This document shows, in pieces, positions 11,700 to 55,135 of a stretch of 64,000 nucleotides of DNA. Each line of letters starts with the position of its first letter. Position 1 is the stretch's first letter. The position numbers were made by a program, and so were the translations under genes. The DNA comes from Octopus sinensis (Eukaryota): assembly GCF_006345805.1 (NCBI RefSeq), contig NC_042997.1:37758001-37822000 (forward strand), in the 5' to 3' direction. A model generated the notes under the pieces. That model was given only the letters and a program-made list of their open reading frames with translations, was not told the DNA's origin and ran no database searches.

Positions 11700-12043
11700 A
11701 TGTTGCACAAAACTGTATGAAATATTAAAATTTCAAACACAAAAGCCGGAAAAATATTCACGAACGCAAATATGAACTGCAGTCAGTTAAATTTTTAATT
11801 ACTGTAACAAATGCAGAAATAGAAGAAATATATTTAGGTCAGACTGGAAATGCACTATCAGAACGTTCACGTGAGCACCGACGGCAAATCAGATATCCAG
11901 TTGTCTGTCAGTTACTTTTGAGTAATCATCTAGCAACATGTGGTCGGAAAATATTTATATTTCCATTCTACAAACTACACAGTCCAAATGAAATTGAGAG
12001 AAATAACTTTATTAATAAATTCCAACCCAAGCTAAATAAATAA
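11700..12043 (+). mobile_element. Penelope-like element remnant, GIY-YIG endonuclease C-terminus
   Basis: 11822-12043 reads EEIYLGQTGNALSERSREHRRQIRYPVVCQLLLSNHLATCGRKIFIFPFYKLHSPNEIERNNFINKFQPKLNK*. This has YIG-like YLGQTG, R..EH, H...C and a terminal FI..F.P.LN. An NMNCS motif lies upstream in a shifted frame. Confidence 0.8.
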
Positions 12044-12185
12044 TAATACTAATATTTAGAGGTACTATTTCTTCTTCTACGACCACTACAACTAACAACA
12101 ATAACAACAATACTAAAGGTGCTTGTGATGACAATAGCTATGTCAAGAGGAAAGTCAGTAAAAATCATCTTATTTTGGTGTTTAA

Positions 12186-12405
12186 CCCTTTAGTGTTCAG
12201 ATTACTCTGTTAAATGTAATACTTTTTCACTCAAATTGTTTTGAATTAATCATGCATTATCTTACAGCTTTGAGGTTTCAATGATGTGAATATTTATTTT
12301 TTGAATGTCAATGTAGGTTAGGTTTGAGGGGCTAAATATGGCCAGTTTGATTATAAAACATATAGAATATTTGGGCCAGATATGGCCGGTTTAAACACTA
12401 AAGGG
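12186..12405. mobile_element. piggyBac-type MITE
   Basis: 12-bp TIRs CCCTTTAGTGTT / AACACTAAAGGG, flanked by TTAA (12182-12185) and TTAC (12406-12409, a mutated TTAA). Confidence 0.75.
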
Positions 12406-12994
12406 TTACCACAGCTACTCATACCACCACCATCACCACCGCCGCTAACAACAGCAACAATAACAATAACAAAGGAGGTGATAATTGTGATGATGAAAAT
12501 TGAAATGTAAAATTCCCTGGGAAATGTCGTTTACAACGTTAATAAAGATAACCCAACAATTGCTGCTTTGGCCAGGGTCAAATCCAGGTCTCTTGACATG
12601 TTCAACAAACCGTGACGCCTAAACCAAACACCAATCAGCTTAAGTAATTCTGATGGGTCAGAATACAGTTTGCTAAAATTAACATTCTGGAGCCTGTACC
12701 TATACAAATGTATTTAAGGCACACAGCTTAGCCATCTCGCTACAGTTGAAAATTGTAAAACAAAACTGTCACCATTACAACATGAATCCGAAGATTTCAT
12801 AACTTAATGCAAAAAAATACTAGCTTAATCAGAATGGATATTTAATATTCTATCATTTCATTATATTATCTTATATTATATTATTATAAGATTGTAAATA
12901 AAACGTGACAATCAGACAAAGTTGGAATTTCTTTCAGTAACATCTGTGTGTGTGTGTGCATACACATATGTATGTGTGTATGTTTGTGTTTGTG

Positions 12995-16549: not shown

Positions 16550-16762
16550 CAATATGTGACCGCGTGTGTATCGTTGGCGATTTTCTTTCTCCGTCTTCCA
16601 TTCCTGGACCATTCCTTTTTCTATGTTTCTGACGAAGAGCTCCGCCCGAAACGTTAAATCCTCCTTCTTTCTTTCCTTTCCTGAGCGTACAATAACACTA
16701 TACTTCTTCCACGTCCTCGCGTTGTTGTGTTTTCTCTTTATGTTTTCATGTTTGGATTAACT
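16550..16762 (+). mobile_element. About 210-bp (TA)n-associated element with a minimal hammerhead (Penelope pLTR-like), family H1
   Basis: Homologous copies at 25822-26030 (-) and 54931-55135 (-). All abut (TA)n at the TTTGGATTAACT end. Hammerhead at 16625-16659. Confidence 0.8.
16625..16659 (+). ncRNA. Minimal type I hammerhead ribozyme motif
   Basis: GUUU CUGACGA A GAGC-UCC-GCCC GAAA C GUU|AAAU. Stem I is GUUU/AAAU. Stem III is only the palindrome ACGU, so it could form only in a dimer. Confidence 0.65.
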
Positions 16763-16824: not shown

Positions 16825-16943
16825 ATATATATTAAACTTTTAATACTTTTGATATATATTTAAAATAATATAAATGAATTAATTTTATGTATTGGCTTAA
16901 GTTTTTCATTGTTTGATTTGCCTAATAGTTGTTTTATCTCTAA

Positions 16944-16992
<49 letters not shown>

Positions 16993-17015
16993 ATATTATA
17001 TATATATATAATATA

Positions 17016-17059
<44 letters not shown>

Positions 17060-17256
17060 TATTACATTATATAAAAGGGCTTAGTAAAATAAATTACTTT
17101 GCCGCATACTGAACTCATTAGAAATAGCAGCTAAAAAAACATTTATAAAACTATTTCTAATACTTAAAGAAAACCTCTCTCATATAGTGTTTGCTCAATT
17201 CAACTCACGGAAGTATGGGGGGTAGAGACATTAAAAAATCAGATGCAAAGGTTATT

Positions 17257-17309
17257 TGAGAACGTACGTTTCAAGATTAGTCAAACTCGACACTTCTATC
17301 ATCAGCTCA
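17257..17309 (-). ncRNA. Type I hammerhead ribozyme
   Basis: Minus strand: UGAG CUGAUGA U AGAAGUGUCGAGUUUGACUAAUCUU GAAA CGUAC GUU|CUCA. Stem I is UGAG/CUCA and stem III is the palindrome ACGUACGU. Confidence 0.8.
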
Positions 17310-17813
17310 GAACTCCCTGGTTTGGATTTGAAAACACTGAAAGTGGGAGCATACTCCTTCGGCCTCCTATCGCTTTTGAAGATCCGCTCGTAACTAACAG
17401 TGCCAATAAACCCAAATATGCAAGCGAAGAATTTCTGCTCTCCCCTTTCCACCAGCGTGGGTTAAAATCAGCAAACACTATGCTTTTTTCGGTAAAATCC
17501 GAGGCATTTAAATAGAGAGAGATGAATTATAATTTCAACAATTGAGGGTAAAATTAATTAATTAATCAATTTCACCAAGTGTTCAGTATGCAAAGGGACC
17601 ATTTAAGGCGAATTCAAATTATTACATTATATAAAAGGGCTTAGTAAAATAAATTACTTTGCCGCATACTGAACTCATTAGAAATAGCAGCTAAAAAAAC
17701 ATTATAAAACTATTTCTAATACTTAAGAAAACCTCTCTCATATAGTGTTTGCTCAATTCAACTCACGGAAGTATGGGGGGTAGAGACATTAAAAATCAGA
17801 TGCAAAGGTTATT

Positions 17814-17866
17814 TGAGAACGTACGTTTCAAGATTAGTCAAACTCGACACTTCTATCATCAGCTCA
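17814..17866 (-). ncRNA. Type I hammerhead ribozyme, identical second copy
   Basis: Same sequence as 17257-17309, offset by 557 bp. Confidence 0.8.
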
Positions 17867-18072
17867 GAACTCCCTGGTTTGGATTTGAAAACACTGAAAG
17901 TGGGAGCATACTCCTTCGGCCTCCTATCGCTATATATATATATATATATATTAAATTAGAGATAAAACAACTATTAGGCATATCAAACAATGAAAAACTT
18001 AAGCCAATACATAAAATATATATATATATAAAATATATATATATATATAAAATATATATATATTATATATAT

Positions 18073-25821: not shown

Positions 25822-25826
<5 letters not shown>

Positions 25827-26030
25827 ATCCAAACATGAACAAAGAGAAAACACAACAACGCGAGGACGTGGAACAAGTATAGTGTAATTGGGCGATTACG
25901 AAAGGAAAGAAAGAAGGAAGTTTTAATGTTTCGAGCGGAGCTCTTCGTCAGTGATGTAGAAAAAAGGAAAAGTCCAAGGAAGGGAAGACAGAGAAAGAAA
26001 ATCGCCAACGACACACACGCGGTCACATAT
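25822..26030 (-). mobile_element. Family H1 element with a hammerhead core (25921-25955)
   Basis: Minus strand CUGACGA A GAGC-UCC-GCUC GAAA CAUU. Homologous to 16550-16762. Confidence 0.8.
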
Positions 26031-43403: not shown

Positions 43404-43917
43404 CTCGCAATATCACGGATGCAGTTGTACATCGTTAACCAGTAAAGGAGATGTCCTCCTGGCGTTAAAAAATCGTAGTAAAGTCGTTTGAAATGGGCAG
43501 CCATGTTGAAGTAGCTATGAAAGATACTTGTTAGTACAACTACTGCGTTGATCTCTGAGAGTGATTTTAGAACTAACACTTTTGCTTGTTGTAATATCAA
43601 AGACTGTATGTGGCTCGAAATTATATATACATTGCGAGCTATTGCCATCACTATCAGACGAGGGGTCCAGTACTGAAGAGAGGCAAAAATAGCCCGAAAC
43701 TAGGCTGGTTCCGTCGCTAGAAGGTGGTAGAGATACGGTCCTCTGCTCGCCATATCTCAGTTGCAGCTGTGCATCGTTAACCAGCTAGAGGAAATGTCCT
43801 ATTGGGGTTACAAAATCGCAGTAGATCGAACAGCTATGTTGAAGCGGCTACGAACATTAGTTGTTAGTACAACTACTGCGTTGATTCCTTAGAGAGATTA
43901 TAGAACGTGCATTTTTG

Positions 43918-54930: not shown

Positions 54931-54935
<5 letters not shown>

Positions 54936-55135
54936 ATCCAAACAAGAAAACAAAAAGACACAACGCAAGGTCGTGGAACAAATAAAGTATTATTGGACGC
55001 TTAGGAAAGAAGGGAAGAAGGGGGGGTTGACGTTTCGAGCGGAGCCCTTTGTCGGAAACATAAGAGAAGGAAAGATCCCGAGAAGGGAAGACAGAGGGAA
55101 AAAAATCGCTAGTGATACAGACGAGGTCACATACT
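54931..55135 (-). mobile_element. Family H1 element with a mutated hammerhead core
   Basis: Minus strand GUUU CCGACAA A GGGC-UCC-GCUC GAAA CGUC (55059-55029). Homologous to 16550-16762. Confidence 0.75.

Follow-up and report, generated by a model that had tools for sequence, protein, structure and literature searches.

A dispersed hammerhead-bearing tandem repeat family in Octopus sinensis whose insertions carry the signature of Penelope-like elements

A pair of near-identical direct repeats, each with a predicted hammerhead ribozyme, found within a 64,000-nucleotide stretch of the Octopus sinensis genome (positions 37,758,001 to 37,822,000 of NC_042997.1, hereafter the window), is a truncated copy of a multicopy, dispersed family of non-coding tandem repeats with a unit of about 560 nt. 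Judged by its sequence, the family is likely to represent a new family of a known class, the animal non-LTR retrozymes, as it possesses every feature in the description of that class in PMC7229834 that can be tested from sequence. Its insertions combine two fixed 3' ends, 5' truncation, inverted arms and TA targets, which is the two-site 'tail' signature of Penelope-like elements (PLEs). The unit is therefore likely, with a probability of roughly 0.8, to be copied into TA microsatellites by a PLE reverse transcriptase (RT) and GIY-YIG nuclease, from an RNA that is predicted to cut itself and would circularise as a monomer of about 560 nt. Mobilisation by PLEs is favoured because the two 3' end sites, the inversions and the TA flanks match features described for these elements, and because intact PLE frames are present in the same genome.

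The movement of animal retrozymes is still argued from co-occurrence and homology. In a recent preprint, for instance, the case is made from co-occurrence and pLTR homology, with local amplification also being invoked (bioRxiv 10.64898/2026.07.22.740005). By contrast, the insertion ends of the octopus family are direct evidence, from the genome itself, that ready-made arrays are inserted in the manner of PLEs, and no pLTR homology was found. This young family maps two priming sites to the base, and its arrays arrive as inverted, multi-unit insertions; as the genome also harbours intact candidate helpers, both trans-mobilisation by a PLE and the choice between a circular and a multimeric template become testable in one system. 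In the literature covered, which took in the preprint's main text, neither a description of this retrozyme family nor one of tail or inversion signatures in retrozymes was found.

The window copy and its family

Local alignment of the window copy (Table 1) confirmed the two near-identical repeats, the identical minus-strand hammerheads and the 557 nt spacing of the predicted cuts given in a preliminary description of this DNA. The repeats share 316 matches and no substitutions, and differ only by three single-base gaps, all in homopolymers. The arrangement had been described as repeat (319 bp), unique sequence (241 bp, 17375-17615) and repeat; these lengths stand, the second repeat being 316 bp, but the middle is not unique, as it belongs to the repeat unit. 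Likewise, the framing of the insertion as a self-contained cassette has to be abandoned, since it comprises 1.57 units, truncated on the 5' side, of a tandem repeat present in many copies, and insertions of this family begin and end inside the unit, never at the ribozyme cut.

Table 1. Features of the window copy, with unit positions numbered from the predicted ribozyme cut
Feature	Position	Strand	Details
Entire insertion	17056..17931	-	5'-truncated, 1.57 units; unit positions 444-557, 1-557, 1-205
One complete unit, predicted cut to predicted cut	17261..17817	-	Non-coding, strongly self-paired (predicted)
Upstream type I hammerhead (predicted)	17814..17866	-	Predicted cut after GUU, 17818/17817
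Downstream hammerhead (predicted)	17257..17309	-	Identical to upstream hammerhead; predicted cut 17261/17260
5' direct repeat (316 bp)	17616..17931	-	Outer boundary (17931, unit position 444) reflects random 5' truncation
3' direct repeat (319 bp)	17056..17374	-	Outer boundary coincides with the 'near' 3' end of the family (unit positions 190-207)
'Tail' segment, about 95 nt, internal in window copy	17528..17623	-	Near site (~195) at 17623; far site (~290) at 17528
(TA)n tract, 3' junction (target)	16948..17055	.	From sequence
(TA)n tract, 5' junction	17932..17951	.	From sequence

The released monomer had been expected to be non-coding, and scanning the six frames of the window insertion indeed revealed no long open frame; the GC content of the full unit is 35.7%. 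The suggestion that the insertion is young was also borne out, with two substitutions separating it from its nearest copies. The homopolymer indels had alternatively been ascribed to consensus error, which is probable, as the 5' direct repeat has the shorter run at all three positions, a form that is rare in the family; across 45 loci, the longer run is the majority form at each (89/92, 157/165 and 135/148). Consensus or assembly errors are thus the most likely source of all three indels, meaning that the window monomer would be about 560 nt in length, rather than the 557 nt of the assembly.

Genome-wide, the hammerhead pattern was matched exactly 2,730 times and the reversed control not once, so the window motif is not a chance occurrence, and the original reading of a retrozyme-type element with a hammerhead was upheld. 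When sister families are included, the number of matches rises to 4,035. A search by unit similarity returned 201 matches at the best 39 of 1,358 candidate places. The copies form head-to-tail tandem arrays with one type I hammerhead per unit, and extrapolating from the first 100 pattern hits, which correspond to 49 insertions, suggests that there are roughly 1,300 insertions in the genome. Two sister retrozyme families, also with units of about 560 nt (L068:9142-9704; L136, L140 and L149), have homologous 3' regions (z 18-31); their stems II and III are altered yet still paired, and the predicted cut follows GUC in one of them and GUA in some subfamilies. Family sequence was also found in assembled contigs from independent public runs, six of them presumed RNA runs and two whose type is not stated, such contigs being uninformative on strand, ends, level and circles and hence not counted as evidence of expression.

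In its composition, the family resembles animal non-LTR retrozymes as described in PMC7229834 and in the preprint (bioRxiv 10.64898/2026.07.22.740005): these too are tandem repeats without coding capacity, have one type I hammerhead in every unit, a GC content under 45% and a highly self-paired monomer, and occur as thousands of motifs alongside PLEs. By its sequence, the window copy falls under the preprint's definition of an 'active' element, namely two consecutive units with complete hammerheads. The unit of about 560 nt lies above the 170-400 nt range given in PMC7229834 and inside the 51-972 bp range of the preprint.

The predicted hammerhead

In both window copies the minus strand carries the motif CUGAUGA-stem II-GAAA-CGUACG-UU (17862-17818 and 17305-17261). 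This provides the parts of a hammerhead, comprising a stem I of UGAG/CUCA, a core of CUGAUGA and GAAA, a U.U at the base of stem II, and a stem III formed by the palindrome AACGTACGTT (17818-17827 and 17261-17270). An Rfam scan returned no hit at the gathering threshold for the window hammerhead, and none of the four hits at E<=10 was a hammerhead; the Rfam models miss the motif, which was identified by its core and its pairing. Among 14 variants from three families, 90.6% of helix cells are paired, a share that falls to 30-40% when the pairing is slid. Five of the 16 hammerhead pairs are changed on both sides, and one shuffle in 500 attains the covariation score; the set consists of related sequences, picked with a motif in which the core and a portion of stem I are invariant. 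Covariation, to which a single sister family contributes most of the two-sided changes, backs the predicted hammerhead structure as support rather than as proof.

The sequence of stem III differs among families, and its self-complementarity is kept. For the palindrome, the predicted stability of a duplex (-11.6 kcal/mol) greatly exceeds that of a hairpin (-1.4 kcal/mol), which fits the dimeric cleavage described for metazoan type I hammerheads (PMC4209133; PMC7229834) and accords with the earlier proposal that the palindromic stem III could permit a dimeric ribozyme. Folding predictions also indicate strong self-pairing of the monomer, in both linear (z -6.95, with 0 of 100 shuffles as low) and circular form (z -6.3). 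By analogy, release of the monomer and its circularisation are plausible.

Several observations argue against ribozyme activity. The window hammerhead, with its cut site at GUU, has two weakening features, the U.U at 10.1-11.1, a pair that is non-standard in 11 of the 14 variants, and a very short stem III; in addition, the predicted lowest-energy fold of the isolated motif differs from the hammerhead, and in a recent in vitro test only one of nine predicted retrozyme dimers cut (bioRxiv 10.64898/2026.07.22.740005). A short palindromic helix III is described for the axolotl HHR_Amex1 and a U.U at the base of helix II for HHR_Amex2 (PMC7229834); unlike in either of these, both weakening features are found here in one ribozyme.

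Insertion ends and candidate helpers

The anatomy of the family was determined from the 49 insertions behind the first 100 pattern hits on chromosome 1, mapped by BLASTN against the window monomer. This sample comprises insertions with the exact hammerhead pattern, and within TA sequence their ends are placed to within a few bases. Two internal sites account for 78 of 81 arm 3' ends: 41 are at a far site, about 290 nt after the cut, and 37 at a near site, about 195 nt after it (range 190-207), whereas two of the remaining three arms end at 159 and 171 and one runs beyond the stretch analysed. The 5' ends are scattered over unit positions 14-533, and across the 49 insertions and 81 arms neither a 3' nor a 5' end lies at the predicted cut. 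Two inverted arms, joined 5' to 5', make up 32 of the 49 insertions, pairing a near end with a far end in 28 cases; the other 17 are single-armed, as is the window copy, which has its 3' end at the near site. The 3' flanks are TA-rich in 74 of 80 cases, each insertion contains between one and six hammerheads, and all arms consist wholly of unit sequence.

Target site duplications are unreadable inside (TA)n, and long flank duplications are rare, a single case being found among those sampled insertions whose flanks were long enough. At the insertion junctions of L004, L006 and L063, flanking DNA was occasionally duplicated over some length, in direct or inverted orientation. A CCCT-(A/T)n-TATA motif ahead of the 3' ends was noted by eye only.

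Partial tandems, inverted 5' copies, a tail at one end and microsatellite targets are described features of PLEs (PMC8557442), and in vitro work with purified PLE protein showed cleavage and extension on both strands of AT-rich DNA, with reverse transcription starting at two internal sites in the RNA that define the tail (PMC11167929). As described for endonuclease-bearing PLEs (PMC8557442; PMC11167929; PMC4209133), the octopus insertions are 5' truncated, include partial tandems and inverted 5' copies, have a tail at one end, target microsatellites and appear to have internal RT starts downstream of the hammerhead. Unlike PLEs, they have no ORF, and their tail of about 95 nt exceeds the usual 30-40 nt. 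Similarly, non-autonomous Chlamys elements such as MRC1, formerly mistaken for LTR elements, are PLE passengers with pLTR-like and multicopy head-to-tail insertions (PMC8557442). By that account, Chlamys generally have 3' sequence in common with an autonomous family and most have no hammerhead, whereas the octopus unit has a hammerhead and no matching partner among the PLEs sampled.

In the favoured model, the arrays would be transcribed on the hammerhead strand, after which neighbouring hammerheads may join through the palindromic stem III into a dimer that cuts. A PLE protein would nick (TA)n and begin reverse transcription at an internal position of the RNA, some 195 or 290 nt past the cut; priming of both DNA strands, one per site, would generate an inverted two-armed insertion. 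Synthesis would pass the cut site repeatedly, implying that the template is either a circle or an uncut multimer. The window copy would represent one arm primed at the near site and stopped after 1.57 units.

Candidate helpers are present, a GIY-YIG search of the genome having produced 147 matches among the best 150 of 5,029 candidates. Autonomous PLE open frames of 781 aa and 775 aa contain RT and GIY-YIG domains (RVT_1 falling just below the cut-off), and have 840 homologues at E <= 1e-30. The autonomous copies sampled terminate in (TA)n, with two 3' ends and tails of about 30-35 nt. The 775-aa family has a hammerhead motif in its 3' UTR, likewise with a U.U at the base of stem II and a palindromic stem III, many copies having CCG in place of CUG in the core; no hammerhead motif was seen in the 3' UTR of the 781-aa family. 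A second, upstream open frame, of 479 and 280 aa from stop to stop, is found in young autonomous PLEs (L107:1674-5374, L112 and L110), the 479-aa frame having no significant Pfam match. At L110:7521 (+), a well-paired hammerhead motif is situated antisense, immediately upstream of the first open frame of the PLE.

No sampled PLE end resembles the unit beyond shuffles, and the unit contains no PLE coding remnant. The similarity of the 3' region of the unit to three PLE 3' regions and two other hammerhead repeats was not above that of shuffles (z <= 1.3). In 30 PLE loci and 22 longer stretches, homology to the unit occurred only as separate nested insertions. Furthermore, tblastn of five unit samples against 125 PLE proteins gave no significant match, the best (E 0.01) being outside the window unit. 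The search for a partner covered about 60 PLE-bearing loci of the 5,029 first-look candidates.

Template, alternatives and neighbouring repeats

A cut linear monomer copied a single time is ruled out as the template, because insertions extend across the cut, in some cases repeatedly, and none terminates at it. A circular RNA is somewhat favoured. Units differ less within arrays than between them, by 3.8 against 21.7 substitutions among 76 units of mixed subfamilies and by 0.54 against 4.15 among 57 units of a sister family. In arrays with three or more units, variants are fixed in all units in 14 of 18; of 75 variable array-columns, only one column varies for the same letters in two arrays, and one two-armed array of nine units has zero substitutions. 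This homogeneity leans towards single-monomer templates, with exceptions: in-register variants, counted from the 3' end, are common to both arms in L062 (four columns), L064 (one) and L173 (one), and L164 and L198 have mixed unit types within the array. A test of arm register over 10 loci, which did not capture L062, was not significant (p = 0.056). Array homogeneity could also arise through assembly polishing or gene conversion.

The junctions at the cut site are precise, 169 of 184 distinct contexts having the standard sequence, 10 that of the GUA subfamily and five a single change, and such precision fails to separate circles from uncut multimers. The preliminary description had envisaged divergent RT-PCR or a junction read at GUU/CUCA as evidence of circles, but neither is diagnostic, since ligation there recreates the sequence of every tandem array; linear multimers or genomic DNA could therefore equally yield the signal.

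A tentative proposal, held at somewhat less than even odds, is that the insertions record a viroid-like circle of about 560 nt, rolling-copied by a Penelope enzyme from two internal priming sites, one for each DNA strand, to give palindromic concatemers. If true, animal retrozymes would be directly proven to transpose by way of circular ribozyme RNAs, and a passenger RNA could be recognised by its helper without common sequence. PLE mobilisation might also proceed without a circle, from an uncut multimer or from a linear RNA with template jumps, the hammerhead being weak or acting at another stage. Such a route, which is quite possible though short of probable, differs from the best explanation at the template step only. 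It would accommodate the in vitro work on PLEs, in which ribozyme cutting was dispensable and the main template was uncut RNA, with no read in those assays ending at the cut site (PMC11167929), as well as the in-register variants common to arms, the mixed arrays and the weak features of the hammerhead. It accounts less readily for arrays of 7-9 identical units that are distinct from other arrays, with within-array variation almost never common to two of them, for the strong predicted self-pairing of the exact monomer and for the hammerhead pairing kept across families; moreover, retrozymes of coral, mussel and axolotl do form RNA circles (PMC7229834).

The unit could also be the 3' terminal repeat (pLTR) of an unsampled autonomous PLE, with the loci being its truncated stumps; the preprint describes retrozymes as similar to PLE pLTRs (bioRxiv 10.64898/2026.07.22.740005), and just a small part of the candidate PLE loci was inspected. 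This is nevertheless unlikely, given that arrays continue through up to nine full units and never into coding sequence, that each arm in the sample is purely unit sequence, and that the tblastn comparison with PLE proteins found no significant similarity. Satellite DNA spread by duplication at the DNA level, or an assembly duplication at the window locus, is less probable still. The homopolymer errors do reveal an imperfect assembly, and in L065 some variants recur with a period of 2, as local duplication might produce, but neither process can produce base-precise 3' ends common to unrelated loci, random 5' ends and inverted near and far arms; single-armed insertions like the window copy recur in the sample, and the family is present in independent public runs. 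The least credible reading is that of a plant-type LTR retrozyme, with two hammerhead-bearing LTRs flanking a unique core. As in plant LTR retrozymes, two hammerheads bracket a monomer in a repeat-spacer-repeat layout, but in the window copy alone. The plant elements are described as having type III hammerheads, true LTRs, PBS/PPT and 4-bp target duplications, whereas the octopus hammerhead is of type I and the middle is part of a tandem unit; other copies have any 5' end, one to nine units and inversions, and it is the variable 5' ends that refute this reading.

Two further repeat families with hammerheads have ends in the TA tract where the window insertion sits. The inverted flanks at 16829-16947 (+) and 17952-18020 (-) were considered as terminal inverted repeats of the cassette and rejected, as they represent 3' ends, truncated on the 5' side, of a different abundant repeat, the best 40 matches to which all have 96-100% identity; longer copies of this repeat have their own hammerhead motif with a palindromic stem III, and two 3' ends. 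A third family, at 16561-16762 (+) with further copies at 25822-26021 (-) and 54931-55123 (-), ends in the same tract and has a minimal PLE-type hammerhead motif at 16629-16660, with one stem II change relative to most public-run contigs. Elsewhere in the window, 11736-12950 (+) is a decayed PLE 3' fragment, in which a GIY-YIG end with 74% identity to the L110 protein is followed by a degenerate hammerhead, and a further hammerhead-like motif with a plausible stem I is found at 43673-43710 (+).
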